Positions 12,340 to 47,702 are shown, counted from the first letter of the stretch. The stretch: DNA of 64,000 nt from an uncultured bacterium (GCA_964528395.1 CAZGTC010000005.1:80840-144839), one strand, 5' to 3'. Translations and numbers: made by a program. The notes: generated from the sequence alone by a model not told the origin.

Positions 12340-15300
12340 ATGGGAATGAAAGTAGAAAGAAATAATGTTCAGCATCCGCGAGGGGCTCCAAATGGAGTAG
12401 GGAGAGCAGGACAACCTTTTAACCTTCAAAAAGGTTCTTCTGCCGGAGGAATTCAAGCTTTTAGGCCGATGGTTGAAGAGAGATTAAATAAACACCCCCA
12501 TTTACAATCTTTTGATATTCTGGGAAAAATCGAAAGAATTGAAGCAGTCTTAAAAGAAGACGGCTTAAAAATAGATGTATTCGGAATTTTTGAAAAAATC
12601 CTTACTTTTTATAATCCAAATTTAGAAGGTATTGAATTAGAAGGAAAAATTGTTGCAATTGTTGATGAGGCATTATCTAATTTAAGCAATAAGGAAGATA
12701 TTTGGAAAAAATTATTGGTTTTTGATGTTCCGGGAGAGGAAACGTTTTTCCCCTTAGCAACAATGGTTCAAGTAGCGCATTTGATTTTTTTGCATAAAGA
12801 AAGCAAAGCTGGCAATCTTCCTATAACTTCTCCTTTGCAGAGCGGCCAAAATATAAAGATACTATTAGAAACATTGAGCCCTAAATCGGAAATCTATAAT
12901 TTTTATCGAATAGCAAAAGAAAAAAAATTGATTGGAACGAATCAAGCTGAAATAGAACAATTTGTAGGTAAAAATTTTGTAATCGCGGGAGAAAAAATAA
13001 AAGGGCAATGGGAAGCTCTTTATGCCACTAATCGAGAAAATGAAATTAATGACCCATTAGGGCACTTGGGTTATTTAAGTGAATTGTGGCAAAGAAGAAT
13101 TGGAACAGAAGAAGAATTAAAACTTATTGTTAAGGCTTTATGCCAGTCTGTTGGGGTTCCGTTTAGTGATGCAGCTAGTAAAAACTTTAACCCTACAGTA
13201 ATTAATTCTTCGGAGGAATTAGAAACGTTTAGGAAAAAAGAGAGAGAGATTCCTCTTTTGTCTAATGTTTTATCTGTTTGGAATTTTTCAAAAGATTCAA
13301 GAAATACATTAGTTTGTAATGATCGTAGTTTGTTTCGAAATAATTTATCTGCCCCAAAGGGTATGTGGAGAGAAAGCGATGAGGGGGTATCTTTAGAAGG
13401 AGACGCTTATTTGGAAGCTCCAATGACCGCTTCCTTGAAGAGCTTAGGCGGTCAATTTTCTTTTTCTGCCAGGATAAAGCCAGCAAATTCAGATAAATGG
13501 CGTGATTTATTGGTTACTTGTCAAAATGGAAAAACAGTGATTCTGCTGGATGGTAAAGAAACAGGCACAACTGATGTGTCTTATGTACAACTTGGAGAAG
13601 AAAAATTACAGCTTTTTAAGGGGTTTAAAGGGGTCATTGAAAACGGGTTCTCTCTCTGGTATACGGTCATGTCCCCAGAAAAAATAAAGGAAGAACAAGA
13701 GAAACAAAAAAAGGAATCATTGCAAGCAAGCTCACCGATAGTTTTCCCTCCAGTACAGAATATGAATATTTCAAGAGTTGTAGATCCAGCTCCTAAAGTT
13801 TCTGCGATGCGAGAAATTAAAGAAACTGATAAAAACCATAATGCGGGTTTAGAGCTATGGAATAAATATCTTAAATATCAAGAATATGCTGCAAAGTTAG
13901 AACGAAATCAATTGAAAAGAGCAGCAAAAATTGGTCTTTGGTTTGGAGTCCCAACTCCGCTGGTTGTTCAAACTGCAATTAAAACATGGCTAATGCTAAA
14001 TTCTGTCGAATATTTTGGAAGCTTGGGTTTTCCTATTTTTGAACTAGGGGCTGGAGTGGTAATTTTTTCCTTAGCATTTAGCATATCTTATTTTGTGAAT
14101 AAATTAATCATGAGATCAACAGAAAAGGGGTTGGGTCTTCTTGGGAAAAAAGCCGAAGATGAAAAGATGGAAAAGTTTTTGGGAATTATAAAGGGATGGT
14201 CTCAAACTGATCCGGAAAGATTTAAGGTAGCGCAAGCATTCATTACAAAGGCTGAAACTTCAGCACAAGTAGATTGGGTAATAAATTGTGTTCTTAGTGC
14301 TAAAGAAGATGAACCCCTGATGCGCTTATCTCAAGCTAGTAATGACTTAATGCAAGGTTATGCTGTTCGTGATGGGGTTTTAAGAAGAGAGGCTCCTGCT
14401 GAACTTAAAGAAAAATTGAGCAATATTCAGAAAGAGATAAAACTATTGCCATCATCAATGAGAGATTTATCTTGTGCAGAAGAAGTAAAATATGCAAAAC
14501 AAATAGCCGACTTGCAAAATAGGCTGAATAAATTATCAGAAGAGCGCGACAACAATTTTAAAAAAGATCGAGAAGATTTGCCAGTCTTGCTTGGAGAAAT
14601 AAAAATATTTTGGCAGGTTATAAAAAAGATTTCAACAGAGGGAAAAAATGAAACAGAAAAATTGGGAGATTGTTTTGGCCACCTGTGGAAGCAAATAAAT
14701 GATATTTTATGTGAACAAAATATAAGCAAAACAGGGACGATTATTTGGGAGGAATCACCGTCAATCCCAAGAGAAGATAAGCCCTTAACAGAAGAATCTT
14801 TGGAAAAGAGATTTTTTGATGCTATCAATAGAGTACAGCAGAAAACGGATTTTTTTAGGGCGAGCATTAATTTGTCAAAGAAGGAGTTAGAAGAAAAGCA
14901 GGGGTCAATTTTAGAGAGTGCTCTTACTGAAGCAGATTTTGTTGCTCTTCCCATAAAACTTCAAGGGTTTGCTCGTAACTTGATAAGCGACATATTGGCA
15001 AGCAATTTAATTTTTACCCCTCCTTCAACAGACTCTGAAGAATGGGAGGACGTTGGAGGATATAAGGTTTGTAAATTAGGGGCAGGGGGATTTGCAGATA
15101 TATATCTTACGCAAGACCAAAAAAAGATTCTAAAAATCTTAAAGCTTCAATATTTATATAGTGAAGAATCGCGCCGTTTAGTGAGAGAAGCACTAGCACA
15201 ACAACTCGTTGTACATCCTAATATTGCGAAAGTTTATGGGAGGGATGAAAAAAATGGTTGGCTAATAACAGAATATGTTAAAGGGATTACTCTTGAGGAA

Positions 15301-15915
15301 TGGATGCAGACAAACGAAAAAGGATTAACAATTATACGAGCTTTGGCTATTTTATTCCAGATTGCCGATGGATTGGAAGCAGCTTTAGTAGAAGGAGTTT
15401 TTCATCGGGATATTTCTTCTCGTAATATTATGTTAAGCGTGGAAAACCCAGCGGAACTTGTAAAAATACTTGATTTTGGAATGTGTAAATTTTTTGAAGG
15501 AGGACCGGCTTATGAAGAAGCTGCGTCAAACCCCAGGCTAAATACAGCATCAGCTCAATTTTCTAAAATGTCAGGAGGAACCCTTGATTATATTGCGCCA
15601 GAACAAGCTATAACATCTTTACAAGAGAAAGGGAAACTTAACTTTAAAGTTGATCTGTTTGCTTTGGGAGTATTATTATATCGAATGTTAACTGGTAATT
15701 TGCCTTTTAATTATGAAAATAAAGGGGTTGAACCACGTGTCCAACATGGAATAGCTTGGTTAGACGAGCAGGTAAATCCAGACTTAACAAATATTCCAGA
15801 AAAAATTCATTCCTTATTGGAGAGATTATTAAAACGAAATCCTCTAGACCGTTATGATGATTACCAAGAATTAAAAGAAGATATACTTAAAATTGCACGG
15901 TTCTATGTAATTTAG
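12340..15915 (+). CDS. Giant membrane protein (1191 aa) with a LamG/ConA-like domain, transmembrane helices, a coiled-coil region and a C-terminal Hanks-type Ser/Thr kinase-like domain with a variant catalytic loop
   Basis: Hanks subdomains are visible: LGAGGFADIY (G-loop), ILKILK, HRDISSRN, DFG, YIAPE and DLFALGVLLYRMLTG. The LamG-like stretch reads FSFSARIKP...LVTCQNGKTVILLDGKETG. Hydrophobic segments are at about residues 530-590. Confidence 0.7.
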   Translation: MGMKVERNNVQHPRGAPNGVGRAGQPFNLQKGSSAGGIQAFRPMVEERLNKHPHLQSFDILGKIERIEAVLKEDGLKIDVFGIFEKILTFYNPNLEGIELEGKIVAIVDEALSNLSNKEDIWKKLLVFDVPGEETFFPLATMVQVAHLIFLHKESKAGNLPITSPLQSGQNIKILLETLSPKSEIYNFYRIAKEKKLIGTNQAEIEQFVGKNFVIAGEKIKGQWEALYATNRENEINDPLGHLGYLSELWQRRIGTEEELKLIVKALCQSVGVPFSDAASKNFNPTVINSSEELETFRKKEREIPLLSNVLSVWNFSKDSRNTLVCNDRSLFRNNLSAPKGMWRESDEGVSLEGDAYLEAPMTASLKSLGGQFSFSARIKPANSDKWRDLLVTCQNGKTVILLDGKETGTTDVSYVQLGEEKLQLFKGFKGVIENGFSLWYTVMSPEKIKEEQEKQKKESLQASSPIVFPPVQNMNISRVVDPAPKVSAMREIKETDKNHNAGLELWNKYLKYQEYAAKLERNQLKRAAKIGLWFGVPTPLVVQTAIKTWLMLNSVEYFGSLGFPIFELGAGVVIFSLAFSISYFVNKLIMRSTEKGLGLLGKKAEDEKMEKFLGIIKGWSQTDPERFKVAQAFITKAETSAQVDWVINCVLSAKEDEPLMRLSQASNDLMQGYAVRDGVLRREAPAELKEKLSNIQKEIKLLPSSMRDLSCAEEVKYAKQIADLQNRLNKLSEERDNNFKKDREDLPVLLGEIKIFWQVIKKISTEGKNETEKLGDCFGHLWKQINDILCEQNISKTGTIIWEESPSIPREDKPLTEESLEKRFFDAINRVQQKTDFFRASINLSKKELEEKQGSILESALTEADFVALPIKLQGFARNLISDILASNLIFTPPSTDSEEWEDVGGYKVCKLGAGGFADIYLTQDQKKILKILKLQYLYSEESRRLVREALAQQLVVHPNIAKVYGRDEKNGWLITEYVKGITLEEWMQTNEKGLTIIRALAILFQIADGLEAALVEGVFHRDISSRNIMLSVENPAELVKILDFGMCKFFEGGPAYEEAASNPRLNTASAQFSKMSGGTLDYIAPEQAITSLQEKGKLNFKVDLFALGVLLYRMLTGNLPFNYENKGVEPRVQHGIAWLDEQVNPDLTNIPEKIHSLLERLLKRNPLDRYDDYQELKEDILKIARFYVI

Positions 15916-15928
15916 GAGGTAAAAAAAT

Positions 15929-17275
15929 ATGTTTATTGCTCCGCTTTCTTTTGTCCACGGGTTATTCGAATCTAATTTATTGGTTAATGCGGGGAACCCT
16001 AGAAAACCGCGGGTTTCCAAGCGCTTATTGGATTTGTTAAAAAAAATGGAAAAAGAAAAGGATCCTGCAAAAAGAGAGTTTGCTTATCTGACCTTAAAGT
16101 CATTGCTAAAGCATTCTAGGGAAAAAAATAATATGGTGCTGGTTTTAATTAATAAATTAAATTCAAAGAAATCATTGATAGATGATAAAGACGACCATAG
16201 CTTTTGTGTTAGAGTCATTGATATATTAGGAGAAACAAGAGATAAAAGAGCAACCCCGATTTTATTAAGATGGTTTAAAAATTGTCCACAAATTGCTGAG
16301 TCTCCATATGGTTTTGAAAATTGTATTACAATTAAGAAGAATATTGCAAAAGTTTTGGGAAAAATAAAGGATCATCGAGCTGTGCCGGATTTGATAGCTA
16401 TTGGGCTAGGGCATCAAGATGGAGAAGTGAGAGAAGCTTCGGCTTGGGCTTTGGGAGAAATTAGGGATCCACGAGCAATAATATCTTTGGTTAAAATGCT
16501 TGAGAGAAGGGATTATTTGTGTAATCTTTATTTTTTTGACCTTGTTATCCGAGCTTTGGCGAAGATTAAAACGAGAGATACTATTCTTGCATTAATAGGT
16601 TGTTTTAAAAAGATAGAAAAGTGTCGCATTATTACTGTCACCATAAGAATAAAAATGATTGGCAGGCGGATCTACAAATCTCATCAAAATTCTTTAGAAA
16701 AAATTTTTTTAGAAATCGCGGATGAAAAAGTGGTGAAAATGTTGAAAAATGCGGCTAAGGATACTCTTCGCAGATCTGGGAATTGGGGAACAATTGCTAG
16801 AATTATCGAAGTTTTTAAGAAAGCGGTTAAGAAAATAATTGATATAAAATATAATCAATATAGGTCAATCATTGAGGCGGCTATAATCATCAATTCACGA
16901 TATTTAACCGCATCTCGCTATCAAAAACAACAAATAATTTCGCAGTTGAGAAGAAAAGTACCGCCAAGACTAATTTCTGTGCTCTTAAGACAGGGAGCCA
17001 GGGGCTTTAATATGCAAATGTTATTAATGCTTCCCCTGGATCTTCGCCAGAGCCTTATTGCTAAAAAGCAACGAGGCGGGCAAACGGTCAAAGTATTGAG
17101 AGCGGTTTTGGGCGAAATCGAAGCCAGCAAGAACAAAGAATATTCACGGCGCATCTGTGAATTACCCTCTAAGGATAAGGCTTTTTGCAATATTATAAAA
17201 GAACTTAAGCGGAGAAAAGCGGAAGGCTCTCCTGTTTATATAGGACAACCTTCTTCTCCATGGGATGTCAAATGA
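15929..17275 (+). CDS. HEAT-repeat (PBS lyase-like) protein, 448 aa
   Basis: Repeats such as DKRATPILLRWF, DHRAVPDLIAIGLGHQDGEVREASAWALGEIRDPRAIISLVKML. Confidence 0.65.
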   Translation: MFIAPLSFVHGLFESNLLVNAGNPRKPRVSKRLLDLLKKMEKEKDPAKREFAYLTLKSLLKHSREKNNMVLVLINKLNSKKSLIDDKDDHSFCVRVIDILGETRDKRATPILLRWFKNCPQIAESPYGFENCITIKKNIAKVLGKIKDHRAVPDLIAIGLGHQDGEVREASAWALGEIRDPRAIISLVKMLERRDYLCNLYFFDLVIRALAKIKTRDTILALIGCFKKIEKCRIITVTIRIKMIGRRIYKSHQNSLEKIFLEIADEKVVKMLKNAAKDTLRRSGNWGTIARIIEVFKKAVKKIIDIKYNQYRSIIEAAIIINSRYLTASRYQKQQIISQLRRKVPPRLISVLLRQGARGFNMQMLLMLPLDLRQSLIAKKQRGGQTVKVLRAVLGEIEASKNKEYSRRICELPSKDKAFCNIIKELKRRKAEGSPVYIGQPSSPWDVK

Positions 17276-17324
17276 TCTGGAGCGTCTAGATAGTATTATG
17301 CATCTAGTTTTTAGAAGGTAAAGT

Positions 17325-18947
17325 ATGGGAAGTTTTTTGATTAATTTGTATCCGAGATTGTCTGGCTATTTGTTGGCAAGCGGGATAGATTTTGCTCGAT
17401 TGAACTCTAAAGAATTAATTGAGAAATTAAATAATAGTTTGGATTGTCGCGAGCGGGCCAAAGCTGCAGAAGAATTAGGACGAAGAAATGAAACATCAGC
17501 TATCCTGCATTTAAGAAAGACAGCAGAAAATGATCCTAGTTTTGTAGTTCGATACCAAGCAAAAAGAGCATTAGCTGAATTAGCTAAAAGAGGCTCAAGC
17601 GAAGCAGCGGAAGCAATAGTTGGCGACGCACCGCTTGAAGTTTATGTAGGATCGCTTAGAGAAGGGAAAGTTACATATTCTATTCCTAACGTTTATTCAA
17701 AAATCAAATATTCAGAACTAATTGAATATTTAGGAAAACCCTTGAGCAATACTCCTTTTTCTGATTGGAGAAATCCCAATGATACAGGACTTGTTTCTAG
17801 CAAAGCAGCCCTTAAAATATTTGGAAACAAGGATAATTTTTGGAAGAAATTTTTTAGAGATACTAGCGCGGACGAGCTAGTTTTTAAGCCAGATACAACG
17901 GAAAAGACCTTTACGGGTTTTTATAATAAAGAGCAACGGAATAAATTTTATGTGCTCTGGCGCCGAATCCAGGAAGAAAGTAAATGGACAAATCGATTTT
18001 TAAGCCAACCCTATTTTGGCGGAAGTTTTTTCTATCGGGGTTTGGCGCGTTTCTTGCTTAATGGTGAGGAAGGAAGCATGCTTGATCCAGAAAAGGAATA
18101 TCAAGCTTTGGACTTACGGGGAAGCATGGAGAGAATTGGGCTTAATTTAGCAATAGATATGCGCGATTTTTATTTTCCTTTTATTGCTGGTTTTGGGGGA
18201 GCCTTTGATTTTCGTTTCAATTTTTTTACTGGTGATGTAAATGGTAGGGCAAAGGGAAAGGCGGATCTCGATGCTTATCCTCGATTATATCTAAGAAATA
18301 GAAATTGGTTGGCAGAAATAGGATTTTATACCAAATCTTGGGGCGAACAAGCATTTGGAGGAAAGGCCGCGATTTCTTTTTCGCTAGAGAATTTTTTTTC
18401 AAAGCTTTCAGTCGCATATTATAAAAAAAGGACTAACTCGGATTCTGGCTTCTTTGATATTCGATTAGACGGGGGATTAAAATTTGGAAAAAAACATGAT
18501 TTTTTCTTTTTATTTAATGGGATAATTTTTCATACTGCTTCAATTAGTGCTACCCTCTTTTTTCAAACTGGAATTGGATACCGTTACTTAGACTTTTTTT
18601 ACTCGTCTTTATATTTAGATTTTTCCGAATCTTATTTTTCTTACAAAATTCTTATGGGGAGCAGGCCGTTAAAATACTTTAGCGTGGAATTATTTCACCA
18701 GAATTTTCCTTATATTAAGCAGAATCTTTTTATTAGTAACGTTGTTTCTTTTGGTGCTTTGGTGTCCGCAGGTCTGGGAAAAGAATTTGAAGTATTTTTT
18801 GAATATAGATTTTGTAAAGCTGAAAAAGGAATGTTTGGAGATATTAATACCAGCGAACATTGGCTGGCGGCTGGGATCCGATGGGTGATTGCTGGAAAAA
18901 ATAATCCGCGCAATCCGATTTCAAGGTTAGAATATGTTAGTTATTAG
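17325..18947 (+). CDS. Protein (540 aa) with an N-terminal HEAT repeat and an aromatic/Gly-rich C-terminal region resembling beta-barrel amphipathic strands
   Basis: N-terminus reads RERAKAAEELGRRNETSAILHLRKTAENDPSFVVRYQAKRALAEL. The C-terminal region has alternating aromatic residues (FDFRFNFF, FFFLFNGIIFHTASISATLFFQTGIGYRYLDFFY). Confidence 0.55.
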   Translation: MGSFLINLYPRLSGYLLASGIDFARLNSKELIEKLNNSLDCRERAKAAEELGRRNETSAILHLRKTAENDPSFVVRYQAKRALAELAKRGSSEAAEAIVGDAPLEVYVGSLREGKVTYSIPNVYSKIKYSELIEYLGKPLSNTPFSDWRNPNDTGLVSSKAALKIFGNKDNFWKKFFRDTSADELVFKPDTTEKTFTGFYNKEQRNKFYVLWRRIQEESKWTNRFLSQPYFGGSFFYRGLARFLLNGEEGSMLDPEKEYQALDLRGSMERIGLNLAIDMRDFYFPFIAGFGGAFDFRFNFFTGDVNGRAKGKADLDAYPRLYLRNRNWLAEIGFYTKSWGEQAFGGKAAISFSLENFFSKLSVAYYKKRTNSDSGFFDIRLDGGLKFGKKHDFFFLFNGIIFHTASISATLFFQTGIGYRYLDFFYSSLYLDFSESYFSYKILMGSRPLKYFSVELFHQNFPYIKQNLFISNVVSFGALVSAGLGKEFEVFFEYRFCKAEKGMFGDINTSEHWLAAGIRWVIAGKNNPRNPISRLEYVSY

Positions 18948-18960
18948 GAGCTAAATTATT

Positions 18961-35552: not shown

Positions 35553-35705
35553 TATGCAGCTTGTGTCCTCGGTTCTGAAAAGTAAAATTATTTCTCGCTA
35601 TGAAATTTTTTATAATTTTGTTCGATAGAAAATCAAGGAGATAGGCGCGAGGGCAAAGCCCGAGCCTATGTTCTATATAGCTAGAATAAAAAGGTTGCTG
35701 ACCTA

Positions 35706-38474
35706 ATGATGACAATAGCGCCCAAAATACAAATAGCTAAGAATAGGATTTCTGAAAGATGGCATTCTTGTAGCCCATTTTTTAATAGGAATTACAAAAT
35801 TAGGAGGATAAAGAGAACTACAGCAGGGACATTGAAAATAATTGATACTTTAAGCGTTTCTCTTTGTCCTAATGGTGTTTTTCTGGAAAGATTAAGGAAC
35901 CGAATATTAAAATCTTACCAAAGTGTTGATTTAAATAGGTTGCCTTCCTCAAAAGAACTAGATTCCTATATTAATTATTTATCTCGTTCTCCGGATATTA
36001 TTTTTTTAGATATTGATGGAACGCTGGCGTTAAATGAAAACACAGGATTATTAATAGCGGCTTTGTTAAAAAGTAATATTAGGCTTTGTATCATTTCTCA
36101 TCGTGATAAAGAATATATTGTTCAAAATATTTTTTCTTCCTCTTCCTCTTTGAACATTGATCAAAATACTTTGTCGAAATATAAAGAAAACATTTGGATT
36201 TATCCGCGCGGAGGAATGGAAAAGTATCGGTATGATAAATCTGGGGGATTAGAAAGAGTAGAAGAATATCCAGTATGTACAATGACTGACCTGGAGGCCA
36301 AAGCAATTGAAGAAGATTTTGTGAGCGGTGGCATCTTGGGAGAAAGAAAAATCGCCTCCTATTTTTTGAAACTAGAGAATAAGGATCCTCAGAAAGCAAG
36401 AGCCCTGGCAACGACAGCTAAAGAACAATATGGAGAAAAATATAAGGTGTATGTGTTTGATGATAAAACAATCTCTATTTCTAAAACATCAAAGAATCTA
36501 GCAGTAGAAGAGGCCTTTGATTCTTCCAAAACGCTAACTGGCATATATATCGGTGATTGTTTTGATGAGTTTGGGAATGATCGCCCGGTTTTAGAAGCTC
36601 AATATGGGGAGAACAAACTTGTAGCCATCAATGTTGGAGTAAAAATTAATCCTGTCGAAAAAAACAAATTTATACAAACTGATATAAGTTCAACGGAATG
36701 GTTAACTGTTGTATTGCTTCATCGAATTGGAGAAGCTTTGGGATGCCACAACAACATTCGTCTAGCTGCACGGTTTCTCAATGAACAAACAAGCTTATTA
36801 GGACGGTTTACAGGTTTAGCCTATAAAGATTCATATAGTCCGGGAAAAGAACAACGCGAATTTGATGGGACTCAAGCAGGAATTATAGACAGTATTTTTA
36901 ATATTGATCCAAGGCCCGGTTATATAAATTTTAATAGGCGATATTTGTTTCCAGAAGAAGAAGCAATTCATATGCTGCCAATTATAAAAAAGATGAAAGA
37001 AAATGGAAGTTTGCCGGTCCTGTTAGCAACTGGAGCCCTTAGATTTAGTTATCCATTATCTGTCTGGATGGAAAAACTTGGAATTAATAAAAAATATCGA
37101 AGAATAAAAATTCCTAGAACTCACGAGGGCCAAGCAAGAGATATAGGGAATTTAGTAACCTGTTTTTTAAGTGAAGAAGAAAAAAAGGCACATTTAAGTG
37201 AGACAGGCATGAAAAAACTCTTAGAGCATCCTAAGTTAAGAGGTAAGGATATTTCAAAACTTAATCGCGAAGATTTAATAGCTTTTTTCCTGCCGCTTCT
37301 TTTAGGCGACGAACTGCTAGCTTATTATGAACTTTTATCAAAAGCAGAATATATTAGTCAGTGTATAAGTAGAGATGGTTCTTGGGAATTAAATATTAAC
37401 TTTCTTTCTTCAAAGAATCGTTTTGCGAATGGTTGCCTGGAGCAAATAGCATCAAAGCTGAAGGATGAGTATGGCGAAAAACCTATTAAAGATAAATTAG
37501 GACTAAAAAATATATTTGAAGAAAGTCAGCCCCTATTAAAAGGGTATAAAGGAATAATAGATGGCCTAGATTTTCCAATCATTGAATTATTACTCGATGG
37601 AACCAAGATTTCAAGGCAATTTTTAGAAAATAATATAATTGGGATTGATGATACCTGTTCAAGGGGAGAATCTTTTTTGAGTTTTCTGCTTCTTATGAGA
37701 ATGCTTGGCAAAAAAATAACCTTTGCTGTAATAGAAGATGGATATTCTATTCGAAGAGGAGAAAACTCTTCTGGTATTGATACTGTTACTGGAGAGTACG
37801 GTTTGCAAATAAGGCCTAAGCAACTGCGAATAAGAGTATTGGAAGATATGCCGGGATATTTTGATGAATTAAGAAAAAGAGATGAATGGATATCTTATAC
37901 TTCTTATGTGCAAAGTGATATTGGTAATATTAGCAGACAGCGAGCTTATAGGGTGAAAATGAATTTGAGTAAAAAAGTAAAGAAATTTGTTTGTCAGCAT
38001 AATATAGAAATTCCCGAAGTGCTTAGATTAGCGGGTTTTTCTATTCGAGAATTATTCAGTGCGTATTTAAGGCAACCTGTTACAGATAAGCCTATAGAAG
38101 ATGAAAAGCAGATTACTTTTGTCGAATTATTTTGCCGCCGTTATTCCTGGAAACATCAATGGCCAATTAGGCACGAAATTGATAATGGCGTAAAAAAGCT
38201 TTTCTCAAGTCTTAGGGAAAGAGAAAAATTAGATGAATATAAATCGACTTTTGCTGACTTTAGAAAATGTGATTACGAATTAAAAGATTTTGAAGAGAAA
38301 AGGCTTGTAATGCAATGGCTGAAAGACAGAGAAAAAATTAAAAGCGAACAAGAAATATTTATTGATGATCTTTTATGCAGAGAAGGGACTTTAATTAGTC
38401 AGTATTTTGACGATAAAATAAGTTTCGAAGAACTTTTAGAAAATTTGCTTTCTTGTATTGATATCAAGAATTAA
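35706..38474 (+). CDS. Large hypothetical protein (922 aa) with an N-terminal HAD-like DxDGT motif (IIFLDIDGTLAL)
   Basis: ORF track. Only motif I of the HAD family is visible, so the assignment is tentative. Confidence 0.5.
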   Translation: MMTIAPKIQIAKNRISERWHSCSPFFNRNYKIRRIKRTTAGTLKIIDTLSVSLCPNGVFLERLRNRILKSYQSVDLNRLPSSKELDSYINYLSRSPDIIFLDIDGTLALNENTGLLIAALLKSNIRLCIISHRDKEYIVQNIFSSSSSLNIDQNTLSKYKENIWIYPRGGMEKYRYDKSGGLERVEEYPVCTMTDLEAKAIEEDFVSGGILGERKIASYFLKLENKDPQKARALATTAKEQYGEKYKVYVFDDKTISISKTSKNLAVEEAFDSSKTLTGIYIGDCFDEFGNDRPVLEAQYGENKLVAINVGVKINPVEKNKFIQTDISSTEWLTVVLLHRIGEALGCHNNIRLAARFLNEQTSLLGRFTGLAYKDSYSPGKEQREFDGTQAGIIDSIFNIDPRPGYINFNRRYLFPEEEAIHMLPIIKKMKENGSLPVLLATGALRFSYPLSVWMEKLGINKKYRRIKIPRTHEGQARDIGNLVTCFLSEEEKKAHLSETGMKKLLEHPKLRGKDISKLNREDLIAFFLPLLLGDELLAYYELLSKAEYISQCISRDGSWELNINFLSSKNRFANGCLEQIASKLKDEYGEKPIKDKLGLKNIFEESQPLLKGYKGIIDGLDFPIIELLLDGTKISRQFLENNIIGIDDTCSRGESFLSFLLLMRMLGKKITFAVIEDGYSIRRGENSSGIDTVTGEYGLQIRPKQLRIRVLEDMPGYFDELRKRDEWISYTSYVQSDIGNISRQRAYRVKMNLSKKVKKFVCQHNIEIPEVLRLAGFSIRELFSAYLRQPVTDKPIEDEKQITFVELFCRRYSWKHQWPIRHEIDNGVKKLFSSLREREKLDEYKSTFADFRKCDYELKDFEEKRLVMQWLKDREKIKSEQEIFIDDLLCREGTLISQYFDDKISFEELLENLLSCIDIKN

Positions 38475-38655
38475 ATCAAGCTGTATTTCCTTTGAGGGGA
38501 TTCTAAGAGCGCAAGAATATTTAAAAAGCTTAGAACAAGTGCCAAGGGCGTAAAAAAATAAACCTTTTTTGAGCATTTTGTGAAAGCCTCTTATAATACT
38601 GACAAATATCACATATTGGCGTAAAATTTGAACTACGCAACATAAAAACACGAAC

Positions 38656-38912
38656 TGGAATAAAGTAGCAGGCTGGTATGACGGCTTGGTCGGAGAAAAA
38701 GGCTCGGATTTTCACCAAATATTGTAACGTGGAGTTTCCATCGGCCACCGCAAGAATATTTTAAAGCCTTAGCTGCTGCTGGATTTTGTGTAAAAAATTT
38801 AGAGGAATTAAGCTCTCGTCGTTATAGCCTAGCTGGTAAAACCCAAAAAATGGAAGATCGCGCTCGCTCCGAAATCCCTCTTTTTCTATTGATTAGTGCA
38901 GTAAGAATTTGA
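38656..38912 (+). pseudogene. Remnant of a class I SAM-dependent methyltransferase gene: N-terminal stub (N)WYDGLVGEKGSDFHQIL*, then a frameshifted C-terminal stub ...EYFKALAAAGFCVKNLEEL...
   Basis: My translation shows a conserved methyltransferase N-terminal motif followed by a stop. The catalytic core is missing and a C-terminal fragment appears in a different frame. Confidence 0.4.
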
Positions 38913-38974
38913 CAAGAAAACTAATATGGTATATTATTTCCGCAGATACTCAAAAATGAGTATTTGGAGAAATA

Positions 38975-39589
38975 ATGAATTTTAAGGAATTTCGAGAAAA
39001 AACCAAACAAGTCCCTTTTTTACAGAGCGATTTAGCTAAATTATTTTCTGTGGAACCCCAGGCTATGCGTAACCAGCTCCAGCGCTGGAAAAACAAGGGG
39101 CTAATCATTTCTCTGAAGAGGGGGGTTTATCTTTTAAACCAAGAGGAAAGAACAAATTCTATTTCAAGGCAGGTAATTGCGGCTAATCTCTATACTCCTT
39201 CATATATTAGCCTAGAAACAGCGCTAAGCTATTATAAATTGATTCCCGAAAAAATTGTGAGTCTAACTTCGGTCACTACCCGTAAAACAAAAACTTTCCA
39301 AAATAAAGAGGGGTTATTTATCTACCGGCATTTAATGAAAGAAGCCTATTTTGGTTTCCAGCTTATGCGTGATGAATATGGGTTTCCATATTTTATGGCA
39401 GAACCAGAAAAAGCGCTTCTTGATTTTCTATATCTTAATCTGGGAAGTATTCAATCGGACAATAATGATTATTATGCTTTATCTCTAAGGTTGCAAAATC
39501 GGTCTCTTTTAAATAAGAAAAAATTAACCTTGTATGCCAAGCGTTATGCCGTAAAAAAACTATTAAAAATTGTGGAGAAGCTAAAATGA
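38975..39589 (+). CDS. AbiEi-like antitoxin/transcriptional regulator (type IV TA)
   Basis: AbiEi-like N-terminal winged helix. Overlaps the toxin gene by 4 bp. Confidence 0.6.
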   Translation: MNFKEFREKTKQVPFLQSDLAKLFSVEPQAMRNQLQRWKNKGLIISLKRGVYLLNQEERTNSISRQVIAANLYTPSYISLETALSYYKLIPEKIVSLTSVTTRKTKTFQNKEGLFIYRHLMKEAYFGFQLMRDEYGFPYFMAEPEKALLDFLYLNLGSIQSDNNDYYALSLRLQNRSLLNKKKLTLYAKRYAVKKLLKIVEKLK

Positions 39590-40392
39590 AAGAAGTTCTC
39601 TTTAATAAAATCAAGAAACTGACCACTCATGAAGAAAAATATAATATTACTCGTGAGTTTTTGCAAGAGTTAATTTTGCAGATTATTGATAAAAAAGGCT
39701 ATTTTGCCAATCTGGCTTTTGTTGGTGGCACGGCGTTAAGAATTTTGTATGATCTGCCTAGGTTTTCAGAAGATCTTGATTTTTCACTTGTGAATAAAAA
39801 GGATTTCAATTTTGGGCAATTATTGGAAGATTTAAGAACCGAACTTCAACTAAATAACCTTGAGATAGAAATCATTCGAAAAGATAAAAAACGTACGGTT
39901 TTAAATGAATTTATTCGATTTAAATCTTTATTGTTTGATTTGGGATTATCTCAACATAAAAATGAGAAACTCTTAATTAAATTAGAAATTGATTCTAATC
40001 CGCCGAGAGAATATCAAACGGAGATTGTTTTGGTTAATAAAGATTTTCTTTTTAAGGTACAAGCTTATGATCTTCCTTCTTTATTTGCAGGGAAATTACA
40101 CGCTTTTCTTTTTCGCAAATACGCGAAGGGCCGGGATTATTATGATCTTTTATGGTTTCTGGCAAAAAAAGCCCCGATTAATTATAAATTTTTATTATCT
40201 GGAGCCCAGCAAACCCAAGGAAAAGATTTTTATATAGATAAAAAAAACTTAAAAAACTTTTTAGAAAAAAAAATTCAGCATACTAATTTTACTCACATTG
40301 CTAATGATACTGCTATTTTTTTAAGTAAAAAAGAAGAACAAGCTTATTTTAAGAAAGAATATTTTCTGGCTGCTATTGATAAGGGTATTTAG
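39586..40392 (+). CDS. AbiEii/DUF1814 nucleotidyltransferase toxin
   Basis: LAFVGGTALRILYDLPRFSEDLDFS motif. Confidence 0.75.
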   Translation: MKEVLFNKIKKLTTHEEKYNITREFLQELILQIIDKKGYFANLAFVGGTALRILYDLPRFSEDLDFSLVNKKDFNFGQLLEDLRTELQLNNLEIEIIRKDKKRTVLNEFIRFKSLLFDLGLSQHKNEKLLIKLEIDSNPPREYQTEIVLVNKDFLFKVQAYDLPSLFAGKLHAFLFRKYAKGRDYYDLLWFLAKKAPINYKFLLSGAQQTQGKDFYIDKKNLKNFLEKKIQHTNFTHIANDTAIFLSKKEEQAYFKKEYFLAAIDKGI

Positions 40393-40400
40393 GGATTTAT

Positions 40401-41467: not shown

Positions 41468-41611
41468 CCATAAAAAATAAATCCCAATGACAAAATCCAA
41501 AAATAATCAGGTTGGGACAACCTGCTTTACGTTTATTTATCTGTTGCGTTATTGATCTGCTAAGTTGTTGATCTGTTACGTAGTTGAGGTTGTCTCAACC
41601 TCAACAGGCTG

Positions 41612-42730
41612 TTACTTTTTCTCTCCGAGTTTGATTAGTTGTTTGAGGCCTTCGTCAAGATTGGACTGGTTGTCTTTTATTGGTTCAGTTAATTTGCTTT
41701 CCGGCAATGAATAGAATTTTGAAAGGGATTCTTTTTCTTGTTTTTGCTTTTGGGCAAAGGTATCGGTTTTTGGCAAGCTATAGGAAAGGGAGAAAAAGTG
41801 GGCAGAGTTGCCTTCAATCTGGCTGTCTTGGCGGAAAGCATAGTCAAATGAGAACCCTTTATAATTCAAGCCAACCCCAGCGCTGATATGGCTAAGCGTG
41901 CCTTCTACAGAAGGGTCTTGGTCTAGCCCCAAGCGCAGGGAGATAAAATCAACTGGCGCATATTCTGTTCCAATGTGCACGGTCAAAGGCCGGTCCTGGG
42001 TAATGTTTAAATTTGTTTCAAGGGACAAAAGCAGCTTGTTTTCCCAGATTTTTTTGCTCATTCCAGCATTAAAGCTGGTAGGCAGGTTTTCTTTTGTGCC
42101 AGATTCCCATAAAAGGCCGTTTTTCCCGTTGATGGCATTTTTTACGGTTAATCCAAAGGCTGCATCATCTTCTTTAACAAGCAAAAGCCCGATGTCTAAG
42201 CTGGTTCCGCTGGCTTGGGCTTTGGACAAATTACTTCCTCCGGAAAAGCCTTTTTGAAAAGCCTTAGCAGTAATTCCAATGCAAAAACTGCCGATTTCAG
42301 AAGGGGCATAAAGGATCTCGTTTAAATTCAACCCATAAGATAATAGAATGGTAGTATCTTGATAACTGATAGCTTGCGCAGAATTTAGGGACGCTTTATC
42401 CGTTGTATAGTATCCAGCTGGAGTGGCTGCAGAAATAAAGCCAATTCCTAGGGTTCCGGTATTGACTGGAATGGATCCGCTAGCTAGCTGATAATTTACA
42501 CGGTCCAAAAGCCGGGTAGACATGCTGCTAATGGACCAGGTTTTGGTATAACCTAATCCTGCGGGGTTGGAGAAAACAGCGTTAGAATTATCTGCGATGG
42601 CGATATAGCTGCGTCCCAAACCGATGGCCCGGGCACCGATCCCAATAGAAGAAGTATCAACGTTAGTTTTGGCCCAACATAAAGTACTGGATAAAACGGC
42701 AATTAATACGAAAATTAAAATTTTTCTCAT
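41612..42730 (-). CDS. Outer-membrane beta-barrel protein with signal peptide, possibly a PorV/UPF0164-like shuttle
   Basis: Signal peptide MRKILIFVLIAVLSSTLCWA followed by GIGARAIGLGRSYIAIADNSNAVFSNPAGL and beta-strand periodicity. Confidence 0.6.
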   Translation of the reverse strand: MRKILIFVLIAVLSSTLCWAKTNVDTSSIGIGARAIGLGRSYIAIADNSNAVFSNPAGLGYTKTWSISSMSTRLLDRVNYQLASGSIPVNTGTLGIGFISAATPAGYYTTDKASLNSAQAISYQDTTILLSYGLNLNEILYAPSEIGSFCIGITAKAFQKGFSGGSNLSKAQASGTSLDIGLLLVKEDDAAFGLTVKNAINGKNGLLWESGTKENLPTSFNAGMSKKIWENKLLLSLETNLNITQDRPLTVHIGTEYAPVDFISLRLGLDQDPSVEGTLSHISAGVGLNYKGFSFDYAFRQDSQIEGNSAHFFSLSYSLPKTDTFAQKQKQEKESLSKFYSLPESKLTEPIKDNQSNLDEGLKQLIKLGEKK

Positions 42731-42885
42731 TGCTCTTTTTGTCCTTTAGATTAAAGCAAAAATGGGCCTAGCCATCTTGCTAAAGCCCATTCTCACTTTA
42801 AACTATTTATTTAATTTTTGCAGATGGCTTGTCCGCCTGCGGCGGGCTTGGCGACCTCTAAGGGGCGCTCTGTACCTATATTATC

Positions 42886-42900
42886 GGGGGAGGGGGGGGG
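42886..42900. repeat. Homopolymer tract G5-A-G9
   Basis: Read directly. Lies between the giant surface protein gene and the outer-membrane protein gene. Confidence 0.8.
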
Positions 42901-42920
42901 TAACTTGCATGCTTTTTTGA

Positions 42921-45900
42921 CTATTCAAAGACCGCGATTTCACCTCTAGCCAGGACCTTTCCGCCACTGGTAATAGCCAAAAGATAGACCCCGTTGCCAA
43001 CGATTTCATTAGAAAAGTCCTTGCCGTTCCATGCAACGGAGTTTTCTCCGGGGTGGGCGCCTTCTTGGCCTGGGAGCAGGGCTTTTCGCCAAACTTGCTC
43101 CCCAGCTATGTTATATAGATATAGGGTGATTTCAGCATCCTGGGACAGGGTATAGACAATATTGGTAGATTCGCCGCTGGACGGCTTAAAGGGGTTGGGA
43201 TAGTTCCTTGGGCTGCCGATAATGCTTAATCCAGCCATGACCGTAAGATCATTGATTTCCCTTTCGGTTTTGTAATTTTCCGTATCATAAGCTTCAATAA
43301 AAAGCGTGTTTTTGCCTTCGGAGAGCTTTTCGGTTGGAGCATAAGCAGCGATGATATTAATATCAGAAGCGCTAGATGCAGACTGTATGGATAATCCCTG
43401 TGAAACCGCTTTGCCGTTTAAGGTTAATTTTATCGAATCTTTTTTCACCCCATTGGGGTCTTGCAGTTCTATGGTGAATTTGGGGTTGGCATTGATTATA
43501 TCCCCATTATTTACTTCCCGGTTGTCTATTTTTACGGTTATGATCGGGCCTTTTATATTAACAATAAACGTAAACGGAGCTGCTTCTCTTTTATTCCCGA
43601 GCTTGTCAAAAGCTGCCACGATCCAGGTATAGGTGCCGTCTTTTAAGTCTTTAGCTGGAATAGTATAAGTATTGGTTTTTGTATCCGTTTCTCCGATTTT
43701 TGTTCCATTGAGCATAATTTCGTACTTGTCCATTCCAGAGCCATTAGGATCATCTTTCGTGAGTTCCCATTTTAAGGTTATGGGTTCTTCTTTATTAATG
43801 CGCTTTTGGTTGGATGGTTCTAGAAGGTTGAAAGAATCAGGCGGGGTGTGGTCAGCCTGATAAACCTCGATATTAGCCGAGGCTTTTAGCTGCTTGTATT
43901 GTGCGGAAACAGTATAGGTGCCTTTTTGGTTCGCAGAAAATATCCCTTGATTGCCCGAACCTTGGATATTGGCAGGGGCAGGGGATGCGGTCCAGGAGGG
44001 GTTAATAATAACCGTATTATTGGCAGCATCTTTTCCAATGACCGTAAAGGTAAAAGACTGGTCGGTCGCGGTTTTTGCGCCTTGAGCCGGGTCGATTTCG
44101 ATCTTAACCGGTTCTTCGGTAATATTGATTTCGATCTCATCGGTTTTGCCATTGTCAGAAGCAGCTTTGATTTTTACTTTTCCTAATGTATTGGAAGCGG
44201 TGAATTCGCCGGTATCTTTATTTATATCTCCTTCTCCCTCGGTTTTTTCCCAAGAAAAACTGGAATAGCCGATAATTTCTTGATTTTTGTTGTCATAGGC
44301 TTTGGCAGAGAAAGTAAATTTAGCGCCTCTTACAATAGAAATGCCTTTATCCTTGATCTGGATTGATTCTGGCTGGGGCATGGCGTAAGTAAAAGTTTTT
44401 ATCGCTGAAGATAAGCCCGCATTATCCAAAGCTTTTACATTCAAATAATAAGTTTTTCCGCTCACAAGGTTCTTGGCCTGGTATTTAATGTCGGTTATAG
44501 TATCCGTTGGTTCTTTTTTTGAATCTTCAGAAATGCTAACTAAATATCCTTGGATGCCAGACAAATTATCTGCCGGGGCAGTCCATTCAAAATAAGGGTT
44601 TTCATAGCCATACGATTTATTTTCTTCAATAATATCTTTTTTTGAACTGTCTGCATAAGCCTTGATAGTATCAATGGCATTGGGAGGGGTGGTGTCAATC
44701 GTAACTGTTTTTTCAATAGTAGTAGTTAGGTTTTTTTTGTCCAGTACTTTGAGGGTGAATTTATATTTTCCTTCCTTGAGAGGAGTAATAATATTCTCGA
44801 ATGATTTAGAGCTAGTTGATCCGCTGCCTTCATCAAGGGGTTTAGGATTTCCTTCCAGATAAAGCCCAAAAAACTGACTTAAGTTGGAGTTTAAGGCCAG
44901 TTCAAAATCAATCGCATATTTAGGGGATTTGGGATATTCGGTTAAGGAGAATTTTTGAATAAGAGTGTTTGGATCAACATCTATGAGTTTAGATACAAAT
45001 GTTCCAATATTTCCGCATTTATCAATTGCTAATAATTTTAAAAGGAAATAGCCTTCATAAGGCAAGGTAATTTTTTCCGCATACTCATTTTTGTTTTTAT
45101 CAAAAGCAATGGTTGACAATGTGCGGTCTGGTAATTCATAGAAAGCATCCGGTTCCCCTTCACGCTTGAATTGGATAACATATTTTTCTATACCTGAAAG
45201 AGTGTCAGTTCCTGGCGCCCATTTTATGGTAAATTCTTTTGAGCCAATAATAAAGCGATTGTTTTCTTCCAGCGCCCCTTCAATCTTCAAATTGCTTTTG
45301 TTAATGCTAATGTCCGGCGGCGTGCGGTCTATAATTAAGGTGTAATAAGATATATTTTTATATTGCAAGAGGGTGTAATTTCCAGCTTTATCATATATAT
45401 CTAAGCGAAAATCAATTTTTTCTTCCGGCATCTTTTCAAAAGTAAAACTTTTTTCCCCGGCTTTAACTGTCTGGAAAGTGACAGGAAAAGGTAAGCCTCC
45501 AAAAATAGTAGATTTTATAATTTGTGTTTCGCCCAAGCCAGAAGGGGAAATCCCTTTATCTTCGGCATTCCAGGAAATGGTTCCTTTATCTTTGATGTAC
45601 AGAGTTCTTGGAAAATTGGCGGAAGCAGTCGGCGGGGTGGTGTCGACTTCGATGCTGGCAATCTCAATATTAGACCATTCTTCAGTTTCATTTGCTACTG
45701 CAACTCCCACAATTTTTTTGCCTTCAATCCCATTGTAGGTACTTAATTTCCATTTTTGTGGAGAACTAAAGGCAGAAAAATGAGTTACGTTTGTATGTGC
45801 GCTTGGATTAAATCCCGCAGCTAGTGCTGGGTCAGCTATATAATTCATAATGTCCATTTTTTTTATAGGAGAGAGAGCTGTTGGTGTTATTGTAAGAGAC

Positions 45901-47702
45901 ACTTCTTCTTTGTTGGTGTATTGCTTTCCTCCTTCAATTATAAAAGTTACTTTTGGTTTCAGCATATCAATGCCAAATTTATATTCTTTAGAAAAATAAC
46001 TATCTTGGCTGTCTTTGGCAACAACATATAAATACCATTGGCCATTGTAAGGGGATCCAGAAATCATATTTATTTTTTGAGGATCAAAATAATTAATTGT
46101 TTCTATGTCCGTTGGCCCATAAAGAGTTTCGGCATTGTTATAGAGGGTGGCAATAAGATTAAGGGTATTTTCTTTTTCTTTCTTTTTAGCTTCGTCAATA
46201 ATTAGTTGGGAAGTTCTCGAAGTTTTGGTAACAATGTAAAAATAGGGTTTTGTTGCGAGTTGCGCTCCAGCGGTTAGTTTGGCAGCATAAGTAAATTCTG
46301 CAGGGGTTTTGCTGCTCCAGGAGTCTTTATTATGATTGGTGGGGGAGGTTATGGTGATGTCGGTAATTAGTGCTAAGGTGGTTTTATAATAAATAGTATA
46401 AGTTTTGTAGCTGCGATTTCCTAAGTTATCTTCTGCTCCTAAATAAACATAATAAGCTCCTGGTCCAGAGGTGAAGTTGATAGTTTCAGTTGTTTTTGTG
46501 TTATCAATTTTGTATTTATCTTGAAAAAGGTTTGTTTGGGGGTCTGATAGTGGATTAAGAGGATAAAGGACATAATAAATTTGTTTTAATCCCGAATTAT
46601 TTTGAGAGGGTAAATCGGTTATTGACCACGTTAGGTTAGCTCCAGTTTTATCGGTAAATATTTTTTCTGGGACATCGGCAGTTATTTTTATTTCGGGAGC
46701 TAGGTCATCAAAATTTATTTCATAGTAGGTTAAATTACTGTATCCGATATTGTTTACGGCTAGGGCATAAATATAGTTTTTTCCGCTGACGATTTTTGGA
46801 GATAGAGTTTCTTCTTGAGGTGGATTTGTCCAGTTTATCGCGGAGATGTTTTTCAGGTCGGTTTCGGTTTTATTATTAGTGGAGCTAACGAGAAAATGAT
46901 GTTTTAAGCTGGTGGTAGACCCTTCTTCCAGTTTTATTTTTATAATTGCGGAGGGGTTTTTGTACCAAATTGTATTGTCAGGATGGGAAGATGAGCTTAA
47001 TGAAATAATGGGTTTTCTATTTAAAAAATCAACTGAAAATTTAGTTGAAATCGCAGAAGAATTGTTTCCGGCTTTATCAACTGCAATTAAATTTAGATAA
47101 TAATCTCCTTTATCTATTCCAGAGAAAGGAATTTGGCTTCCTTTTAACCACGTGCTGTTTCCAAACCAATGGCTGCCAGTAGCATCGGTTTTATTGGGAT
47201 CATAGGTCATCAAAGGGGTTTCTGGAGATTTGGAAATAGTATATGCGTATCCTTCAATTCCACTAATAGGATCAGTCGCAAGGGAAAAGGCAACTTCTAT
47301 ATAACTTTTAGTAGAATTTCCATATATTATTGTTGCGTTTAAATTTTTAGGAGGATTAGGAAGGGTGTTATCAAATTTTAAACTAAAAGATTGAGATCCA
47401 AGTTCTTGTGCGCCAATAATTCCTCCGGGTGCTTTATAAGCTTTTACTGTAAGGGTATGGCTATTGTTTAGTAGATGGGTATCTATTTTTACGGTTCCGG
47501 TTGTTGTTTGTTGAGGGGCGTTGCTATCAATATAATATTCAATATAGTCAGCTCCTGTTAATGCCCAGCGGAAAGTTAAATTTTTAGCATGCCAACCATT
47601 TAAATAATCTTCTACTGTAACAAAAGTTGCAGCTTCGGTGATTTGAAAAAATATTAAACATGAAAAAAGCATTAGAATAAAAAAAAATCTTATTGATTTC
47701 AT
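42921..47702 (-). CDS. Giant secreted surface protein (1593 aa) with multiple Ig-like/FN3-like domains and a C-terminal FlgD-Ig/T9SS-type sorting domain
   Basis: Signal peptide, a BIG2-like segment, and the C-terminus NYPNPFKP...ITLYLYNIAGEQV...NGVYLLAITSGGKVLARGEIAVFE. Confidence 0.75.
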   Translation of the reverse strand: MKSIRFFFILMLFSCLIFFQITEAATFVTVEDYLNGWHAKNLTFRWALTGADYIEYYIDSNAPQQTTTGTVKIDTHLLNNSHTLTVKAYKAPGGIIGAQELGSQSFSLKFDNTLPNPPKNLNATIIYGNSTKSYIEVAFSLATDPISGIEGYAYTISKSPETPLMTYDPNKTDATGSHWFGNSTWLKGSQIPFSGIDKGDYYLNLIAVDKAGNNSSAISTKFSVDFLNRKPIISLSSSSHPDNTIWYKNPSAIIKIKLEEGSTTSLKHHFLVSSTNNKTETDLKNISAINWTNPPQEETLSPKIVSGKNYIYALAVNNIGYSNLTYYEINFDDLAPEIKITADVPEKIFTDKTGANLTWSITDLPSQNNSGLKQIYYVLYPLNPLSDPQTNLFQDKYKIDNTKTTETINFTSGPGAYYVYLGAEDNLGNRSYKTYTIYYKTTLALITDITITSPTNHNKDSWSSKTPAEFTYAAKLTAGAQLATKPYFYIVTKTSRTSQLIIDEAKKKEKENTLNLIATLYNNAETLYGPTDIETINYFDPQKINMISGSPYNGQWYLYVVAKDSQDSYFSKEYKFGIDMLKPKVTFIIEGGKQYTNKEEVSLTITPTALSPIKKMDIMNYIADPALAAGFNPSAHTNVTHFSAFSSPQKWKLSTYNGIEGKKIVGVAVANETEEWSNIEIASIEVDTTPPTASANFPRTLYIKDKGTISWNAEDKGISPSGLGETQIIKSTIFGGLPFPVTFQTVKAGEKSFTFEKMPEEKIDFRLDIYDKAGNYTLLQYKNISYYTLIIDRTPPDISINKSNLKIEGALEENNRFIIGSKEFTIKWAPGTDTLSGIEKYVIQFKREGEPDAFYELPDRTLSTIAFDKNKNEYAEKITLPYEGYFLLKLLAIDKCGNIGTFVSKLIDVDPNTLIQKFSLTEYPKSPKYAIDFELALNSNLSQFFGLYLEGNPKPLDEGSGSTSSKSFENIITPLKEGKYKFTLKVLDKKNLTTTIEKTVTIDTTPPNAIDTIKAYADSSKKDIIEENKSYGYENPYFEWTAPADNLSGIQGYLVSISEDSKKEPTDTITDIKYQAKNLVSGKTYYLNVKALDNAGLSSAIKTFTYAMPQPESIQIKDKGISIVRGAKFTFSAKAYDNKNQEIIGYSSFSWEKTEGEGDINKDTGEFTASNTLGKVKIKAASDNGKTDEIEINITEEPVKIEIDPAQGAKTATDQSFTFTVIGKDAANNTVIINPSWTASPAPANIQGSGNQGIFSANQKGTYTVSAQYKQLKASANIEVYQADHTPPDSFNLLEPSNQKRINKEEPITLKWELTKDDPNGSGMDKYEIMLNGTKIGETDTKTNTYTIPAKDLKDGTYTWIVAAFDKLGNKREAAPFTFIVNIKGPIITVKIDNREVNNGDIINANPKFTIELQDPNGVKKDSIKLTLNGKAVSQGLSIQSASSASDINIIAAYAPTEKLSEGKNTLFIEAYDTENYKTEREINDLTVMAGLSIIGSPRNYPNPFKPSSGESTNIVYTLSQDAEITLYLYNIAGEQVWRKALLPGQEGAHPGENSVAWNGKDFSNEIVGNGVYLLAITSGGKVLARGEIAVFE

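Follow-up and report, generated by a model that had tools for sequence, protein, structure and literature searches.

A conserved two-gene cassette of Margulisiibacteriota pairs a T9SS type A-like C-terminal domain with a PorV/PorQ-family barrel and is a candidate surface-display unit

[quoted passage not shown] PorV serves many dispersed cargoes. In the type B CTD pairs, SprB–SprF of Flavobacterium johnsoniae and PG1035–PorP–PorE of Porphyromonas gingivalis, the cargo gene is followed by the gene for its own PorV/PorP-superfamily barrel, which acts as the surface anchor of that one cargo and which, in P. gingivalis, is linked to peptidoglycan through PorE. Both the PorE–PorP–PG1035 and the SprB–SprF complexes have been published (PMC9143113), as have the cognate shuttles of type B CTDs (PMC12618676), and in the substrate-bound SprA–PorV structure the CTD binds to extracellular loops of PorV (PMC10994853). 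The T9SS has been described as confined to the Bacteroidota or the wider Fibrobacterota–Chlorobiota–Bacteroidota (FCB) group (PMC12365241, PMC12398890). Here we analyse a stretch of 64,000 nt from an uncultured bacterium (GCA_964528395.1, CAZGTC010000005.1:80840-144839; hereafter the window), in which the gene for a giant protein of 1593 aa with a T9SS type A-like CTD, the cargo, is followed by the gene for a PorV/PorQ-family barrel. The layout looks like that of the SprB–SprF and PG1035–PorP pairs. We consider it somewhat better than an even chance (probability about 0.55) that the cassette is a surface-display pair, in which the giant would be docked via its CTD on a cognate barrel that serves as its dedicated carrier or anchor, in a diderm host of the Margulisiibacteriota type.

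An earlier note on this DNA, made from the sequence alone, had described a PorV-like barrel beside a multi-Ig surface protein with a T9SS/FlgD-Ig-type CTD, in a low-GC lineage. Both open reading frames (ORFs) are present as it gave them (Table 1), the GC content of the region is indeed low (~0.36–0.44), and the motifs that it quoted were all found, namely NYPNPF at aa 1500–1505 of the cargo (43188–43205), LYNIAG at aa 1529–1534, NGVYLL at aa 1570–1575 and, in the barrel, GARAIGLGRSYIAIADNSNAVFSNPAGL at aa 32–59 (42554–42637), which is of the form GARAIGLG...NPAGL. The term multi-Ig is apt, since Pfam and NCBIfam searches of the cargo return fn3, Big_13, Big_7, Big_3_2 and OmpL47-type Ig-like domains. 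A protein identical to the cargo is carried by a 247,286-bp contig at NCBI, of which the window is part, and both proteins of the pair have N-termini that read as signal peptides.

The C-terminus of the cargo is a T9SS type A-like/FlgD-Ig sandwich. TIGR04183, the model for T9SS type A sorting domains (cutoff 23), scores 29.4 bits on the isolated 100-aa CTD and 20.4 on the whole cargo, while FlgD_ig reaches 27.9 bits against a cutoff of 27, and the AlphaFold2 model of the domain is a seven-stranded sandwich with a mean predicted local distance difference test score (pLDDT) of 93.5. The assignment of the CTD in the earlier note is thereby supported. The CTD also matches the C-terminal region of PorU (E 9e-16) and the C-terminal domain of PorZ, and the same is seen across 41 members of the CTD family, among which TIGR04183 matches 34, the PorU C-terminus 36 and the PorZ C-terminus 23. 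No match to PF18962 was reported by Pfam for the window cargo, and in relatives this family stays below threshold. The type B model TIGR04131 gives no match with the window CTD and touches only 3/41 members, weakly (best E 0.0028), so that a type B identity was ruled out and the CTD differs in this respect from those of the SprB–SprF and PG1035–PorP pairs. Within the window the domain is present in one copy by tblastn, and the pattern N[YVF]PNPF occurs once across the six frames. A protein search with 114 aa of the CTD alone gave four matches, and a search with the 41-sequence alignment returned short proteins and fragments only.

By sequence and fold, the barrel is a member of the PorV/PorQ family. 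It scores 107.2 bits (E 1.2e-30, aa 25–318) with NCBIfam NF033709, well above the cutoff of 90, and 42/42 barrel homologs match this model as well. Pfam PorP_SprF (PF11751) is passed narrowly (26.1 bits against a gathering score of 22.3), whereas the PorP/SprF model TIGR03519 is not (30.3 bits, cutoff 90.55). The barrel likewise falls below the equivalog cutoffs for PorV (NF033710, 21.9 of 250 bits), PorQ (NF033711, 34.5 of 220) and PorV2 (NF052325, 46.7 of 325). An AlphaFold2 model built on an alignment of 42 homologs (pLDDT 86.9, predicted template-modelling (TM) score 0.78) has 14 strands, with an N-terminal segment of short helices before strand 1 and a tail of ~54 aa after the last strand. 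The top Foldseek matches in the PDB are the PorV chains 8gl6_F and 6h3i_F (TM 0.63 and 0.61) from F. johnsoniae SprA translocon structures, and PorV is also the sole genuine PDB match by sequence profile, in line with the PorV-like identity proposed in the earlier note.

To place the pair in its genomic context, we ran hidden Markov models (HMMs) for the CTD, the barrel and S-layer homology (SLH) domains over ~1.3 Mb of loci. The barrel-selected set comprised 79 species-representative loci, two further loci (L002 and L004) and the window, and the related-locus scans were queried with subsets of the alignments. The models picked out 93 ORFs with the barrel and 51 with the CTD, the latter in every instance at the extreme C-terminus. 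L002 and L004 encode barrels that share ~40% identity with that of the window and lie among different flanking genes, and in each case a CTD-bearing giant lies directly upstream, its end being overlapped by the barrel gene. The passenger regions of these giants are unrelated (He_PIG, Big_2 and BACON domains in one, cadherin-like domains in the other), and their CTDs are 46–50% identical to the window CTD over 108 aa; the adjacency tracks the CTD, not the passenger domains. Across the barrel-selected loci, a barrel gene comes next on the same strand, at a distance of −385 to +250 nt, for 38 of the 48 non-redundant CTD genes. Cargo and barrel genes overlap by 4–25 nt in most relatives, and an overlap of 4 nt is common. 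Most of the other ten are accounted for by CTD–CTD–barrel tandems, by the order barrel then CTD, by an intervening gene (a BNR/Ycf48-like propeller or an unidentified ORF of 768 aa) or by locus ends; two of the 48 are orphans, one followed by a tRNA synthetase gene (L037) and the other by no ORF.

Since these loci had been selected on the basis of the barrel, reciprocal tests were made. Look-ups that started from CTD proteins found an adjacent barrel in 3/3 cases. As a control, a broad metagenome scan with the CTD gave at least 80 loci, mostly with more distant generic NYPNPF-type CTDs and not amounting to a census; among the matches listed, a family barrel came next after only 2 of 78 evaluable NYPNPF-type CTD genes, and both of these barrels match the Margulisiibacteriota barrel HMM at E ~1e-70. 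From these frequencies we conclude that the adjacency is specific to the barrel-linked family and not general to T9SS-like CTDs. The distances among CTDs and among barrels correlate (Mantel r = 0.66, reached by 0/2000 permutations), which fits inheritance as a unit. Cargo and barrel form a conserved two-gene cassette in Margulisiibacteriota, and the conserved adjacency argues that the two are functionally linked. The layout looks like one barrel per CTD gene and not like a PorV shared by dispersed cargoes.

These data bear directly on whether the two genes might be neighbours by coincidence, the barrel being a FadL-type channel for hydrophobic compounds or a mere outer-membrane tether unrelated to the giant. 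The barrel family has features in common with FadL/TodX channels: 14 strands, a segment ahead of the first strand, and a residue triplet, N55-P56-A57, that is invariant across the family and that we take to resemble the NPA signature of the FadL-family hatch. TodX and FadL are, moreover, the next-best PDB fold matches, and many paralogs are solitary SLH-barrels. The fold similarity is nevertheless lower than that to PorV (TM ~0.5 compared with 0.63), the window barrel has no Pfam match to Toluene_X (PF03349), which is present only in the most distant homologs (P0038–P0041), and the FadL/TodX channels do not share the linkage to CTD proteins, which recurs in the ~40% identical relatives amid other flanking genes. 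We regard coincidence as highly improbable, and a simple FadL channel with a chance neighbour was rejected on the synteny statistics.

Individual loci vary around the common layout. One contig (L010/L011; CAVSGV010000006.1, 423.9–456.9 kb) carries tandem CTD genes of 201, 1205, 1200 and 745 aa together with two identical 402-aa barrels ~11.9 kb apart, an arrangement that suggests a recent duplication of the cassette. In the genome Prado142, a BNR/Ycf48-like beta-propeller gene stands between the CTD gene and an SLH-barrel in two separate cassettes (L053 8239–9933 and L062 257–1942); no sortase or peptidase is encoded by these intervening ORFs or by the one that follows the CTD gene of L037. 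Upstream of the CTD giants of L002 and L004 lie further giant genes (2332–6675, 1447 aa, and 575–4459, 1294 aa, respectively) with no CTD and almost no family matches.

The paired cargoes range in size from 109–136 aa, where the protein consists of a signal peptide and CTD only, up to 3332 aa. CTD-only mini-proteins were seen in L045 (9681–10010), L084 (9672–10007), L081 (1368–1778), L088 (6001–6330) and L103 (4929–5276), and in each of these the gene overlaps the start of a barrel gene. Because such mini-proteins are paired with barrels, the CTD appears to be more than a passenger tag, namely a subunit that partners the barrel. The larger passengers that were sampled are of extracellular type (CBM11/CBM30 with TIG, fn3, Big_5, FG-GAP and beta-helix/PMP), and a C25 peptidase was present in 0/10 of the paired cargo proteins scanned.

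Among 86 barrels, 38 are linked to a CTD gene (20 without and 18 with SLH repeats), 41 are solitary SLH-barrels and seven are neither, several of the last having a truncated upstream region. SLH repeats, found in 59/86 barrels, are C-terminal to the barrel in the fusions and occupy the position of the C-terminal tail of the window barrel, which has no SLH domain and falls in a mostly CTD-linked clade devoid of SLH. The solitary SLH-barrels belong mostly to one clade. At L006 (10001–11653) and ~40 other loci of Margulisiibacteriota/Saganbacteria (for example L019, L029 and L044), a solitary PorV-like barrel ends in three C-terminal SLH repeats, and we suggest, on domain content, that these are candidate tethers between outer membrane and peptidoglycan built on a FadL/PorV-type barrel. 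Proteins that combine SLH with a barrel have been reported in the same phyla (bioRxiv 10.1101/2021.05.31.446380), and the OmpM/SLH-porin tethers of diderm Terrabacteria likewise join an outer-membrane barrel to SLH. In the relatives of the window barrel, however, the domain order is reversed, with the barrel first and SLH last, and the barrel is of the 14-stranded PorV/FadL type, not of the porin type. Membership of OmpM was ruled out for the window barrel itself on account of its missing SLH domain.

The distribution of homologs also indicates the probable host. Only 43 barrel homologs were found among 5.8 billion proteins, and nearly all of the named ones belong to Candidatus Margulisiibacteriota or Saganbacteria; similarly, nearly all of the 79 loci from the scan of species-representative genomes come from metagenome-assembled genomes of Margulisiibacteriota/WOR-1/Saganbacteria, with several paralogs per genome, although the best locus in that scan is only 41% identical to the window barrel. 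We infer that the host phylum is of the Margulisiibacteriota type. NCBI taxonomy places Margulisiibacteriota in the Bacillati, within the Cyanobacteriota/Melainabacteria group and far from the FCB group, and the named relatives thus agree with the earlier view of a host outside the Bacteroidota. A diderm envelope, which had also been suggested, is consistent with the predicted 14-stranded barrel bearing a signal peptide and with the SLH-fused paralogs.

In the surface-display model that we favour, Sec would export both proteins and the BAM machinery would insert the barrel into the outer membrane. The last ~100 residues of the cargo may then dock non-covalently on the cognate barrel encoded downstream, as suggested by the gene linkage and by analogy, probably on its extracellular loops as in the case of CTD and PorV (PMC10994853), with the CTD presumably being retained on the cargo. 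The barrel would act as a dedicated carrier or anchor for a single cargo, as do PorP for PG1035, SprF for SprB and the type B shuttles (PMC9143113, PMC12618676). The closest models would be PorZ and PorU, held by PorQ and PorV, and the proteins with type B CTDs, held by PorP/SprF-like partners. Among solved structures PorV is the nearest to the barrel, and the CTD profile finds a match in the C-terminal domains of PorU and of PorZ, yet each CTD gene in the cassettes has its own barrel. With the SLH paralogs, a chain may run from the surface protein through the outer-membrane barrel to peptidoglycan, SLH taking the part that PorE plays in P. gingivalis; the cassettes differ from the type B pairs in that this link is a fused SLH domain and not a separate OmpA-like protein, and in that the host is of the Margulisiibacteriota and not the Bacteroidota.

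Several points weigh against this model. Docking is deduced from linkage and analogy, the structure models being of monomers, and no outer-membrane export route was identified for the cargo. The fold of the CTD is a generic Ig sandwich, for which a PDB fold search does not discriminate: PorZ, PorU and FlgD all appear among generic Ig matches that are weak (E ~1e-4). The Mantel correlation is confounded by shared descent, and co-transcription in the window is not certain, because a 190-nt gap with hairpin-like sequence separates the two genes. The 41/86 barrels that have SLH but no CTD neighbour imply at least one role of the family that does not involve the CTD. Lastly, the data from the source genome amount to 64 kb plus ~3.7 kb past one end. 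Family membership of both proteins, their predicted folds and a strong lineage-specific gene linkage are nonetheless established from sequences and models.

The most obvious alternative is a canonical T9SS, with SprA/Sov, PorKLMN and a PorU-type sortase encoded elsewhere in the genome, the barrel acting as a PorV-like shuttle and the CTD as a cleaved signal. Both the isolated CTD (TIGR04183) and the barrel (PorV/PorQ family) score above their model cutoffs, the PGAP pipeline labels relatives as ‘T9SS type A sorting domain-containing’ (some of the mini-proteins included) and as ‘PorV/PorQ family’, and the limited span of genome data would leave room for such genes. NCBIfam and Pfam searches found no SprA/Sov, PorK-N, PorU, PorZ or sortase among most window ORFs of at least 110 aa, and no T9SS core gene was present in the ~3.7 kb past the right end of the window (L092), which holds housekeeping genes, or in neighbourhoods with precomputed Pfam annotation. 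The published type B pairs, as well as the PorV/PorQ systems, differ from the cassette in this respect, since the former need the T9SS translocon. Furthermore, a genome has several cassettes, each CTD gene with its own barrel, the CTD-only mini-proteins carry nothing to secrete, and about half of the CTD-linked barrels are fused to SLH and presumably fixed to the wall, which is a poor fit to a diffusing shuttle. The papers cited above describe the T9SS only from the Bacteroidota/FCB, and we found no published report that links it with Margulisbacteria or that links PorV with an SLH domain. Overall, a canonical T9SS is the less likely outer-membrane route, and we consider this alternative unlikely. 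The earlier proposal of CTD-dependent surface display is thus sustained in part: the two genes are linked by conserved adjacency, while the Por/T9SS pathway that it invoked is not indicated by the scanned ORFs, by the lack of C25 in the sampled cargoes or by the one-barrel-per-CTD layout. The counter-case named in the same note, a CTD with matches to generic FlgD-Ig folds only and no machinery in the genome, agrees with the lack of machinery among the scanned window ORFs but not with the match of the CTD to the T9SS model.

Could the barrel itself be the export route? In a split-autotransporter-like scheme, the barrel together with BAM would pass the cargo across the membrane and the CTD would end as a plug or cap. 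The cassette has only two conserved genes, their translational coupling suggests 1:1 assembly, and no other translocon was found nearby. On the other hand, the cargo is made as a polypeptide of its own and would dock through a domain that folds as a sandwich, and in the AlphaFold2 model the strands follow an N-terminal segment, like the one that occludes the lumen in FadL and PorV. PorV works as a carrier, not as a pore, and to our knowledge no 14-stranded FadL-type barrel exports proteins. We give this scheme little credence.

A further arrangement would keep the CTD protein in the periplasm, where it would bind the barrel on the periplasmic face or at the tail and either regulate it or build a layer beneath the membrane. 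In its favour, no export route for the cargo was identified, the tail and the SLH repeats should be periplasmic given the even number of strands, and the CTD-only mini-proteins could be small periplasmic partners. Set against this are cargo modules of typically extracellular kinds (CBM11/30, FG-GAP, PMP-like beta-helix) in proteins of up to 3332 aa, and the location of the CTD on the extracellular loops of PorV in the solved T9SS complex (PMC10994853). A periplasmic complex appears improbable, and surface display remains our preferred reading.

More tentatively, and at somewhat below even odds, a type A-like CTD and a PorV-type barrel may constitute an autonomous, T9SS-independent two-gene module that has multiplied within genomes and is often tied to peptidoglycan by SLH, with giant adhesins crossing the outer membrane by a route yet to be described; such a module might be the ancestor of the T9SS or have been acquired from the FCB group. 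The individual pieces are already labelled by annotation pipelines, and we found no description of the cassette as a system in the literature. What is new is a cassette with a separate barrel for each cargo, the existence of CTD-only partners, the fusion of barrels to SLH and a Terrabacterial host, of a phylum that is sister to the cyanobacteria. If the cassettes work without SprA and PorKLMN, the module for recognition and anchoring would be separable from the T9SS machine, which bears on the origin of the T9SS; surface proteins would be fixed to the diderm envelope in a new way (surface protein, outer-membrane barrel, SLH, cell wall), and the passage of proteins as large as 3332 aa through the outer membrane would become a question. 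Should a full T9SS be present instead, this would still be a large phylogenetic extension of that system, with an unusual one-barrel-per-cargo layout. In either case the cassette offers a simple two-protein system for a heterologous host.

Table 1. Features of the cassette and its borders in the window (nt positions counted from the first letter of the window; aa positions refer to the respective protein)
Feature	Position	Strand	Description	Basis
Cargo gene	42921-47702	-	1593 aa: signal peptide, ~1470 aa of Ig-like/fn3/Big repeats, CTD at the C-terminus	ORF call; Pfam/NCBIfam domains
Cargo signal peptide	47631-47702	-	Predicted Sec signal peptide, MKSIRFFFILMLFSCLIFFQITEA/ATF	Read from the sequence
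Cargo CTD	42924-43223	-	aa 1494-1593; seven-stranded beta-sandwich, T9SS type A-like/FlgD-Ig; proposed barrel-docking module	HMM; AlphaFold2
Cargo-barrel spacer	42731-42920	-	190 nt; upstream of the ribosome-binding site of the barrel gene it has a C9-T-C5 tract and two hairpin-like stretches rich in GC	Sequence reading
Barrel gene	41612-42730	-	372 aa; PorV/PorQ-family outer-membrane barrel	NF033709; AlphaFold2; PDB fold matches
Barrel N-terminal segment	42548-42658	-	aa 25-61; holds the motif that is best conserved in the family, with N55-P56-A57 invariant	Invariant alignment columns
Barrel strands	41777-42535	-	aa 66-318; 14 predicted transmembrane beta-strands	DSSP on AlphaFold2 model
Barrel C-terminal tail	41615-41776	-	~54 aa; two low-confidence predicted helices; presumably periplasmic	AlphaFold2 model
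Terminator-like hairpin	41508-41524		Lies between the barrel gene and queA, which is convergent; both strands have T-runs	Consensus match alone

Within the spacer, the C9-T-C5 homopolymer (42886–42900, minus strand) could be a slippage-prone site. The hairpin-like stretches there were not picked up by the terminator scan, and in the terminator and promoter scans of the window the numbers of sites, including the hairpin between the barrel gene and queA, were not above shuffle expectation. An Rfam scan of the window gave no match.

In place of T9SS genes, the scanned ORFs of the window include parAB and housekeeping genes, and others encode HEAT-repeat proteins, one Ser/Thr kinase, a PilB/GspE-type ATPase that stands isolated, a toxin-antitoxin pair and FtsH with an intein. 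No GspF/GspD-like gene accompanies the PilB/GspE-type secretion ATPase (6103–7362, minus strand) in the neighbouring ORFs that were scanned. At 7226–22857, a protein of 1191 aa that has a Ser/Thr kinase domain at its C-terminus is surrounded by large HEAT/PBS-lyase-like repeat proteins (1057, 448, 540, 393 and 613 aa), and several ORFs near this cluster have no family match. A segment of ~4.85 kb (35553–40400), between a FecCD-type ABC transporter and queA, is missing from the syntenic relative L008; it contains a 922-aa ORF with no family match and an AbiEi-like/AbiEii toxin-antitoxin pair. Finally, the ftsH gene (55013–58165, plus strand; 1050 aa) is interrupted by an intein, with matches to the intein N-terminal splicing region and to Intein_splicing lying between the AAA segments.

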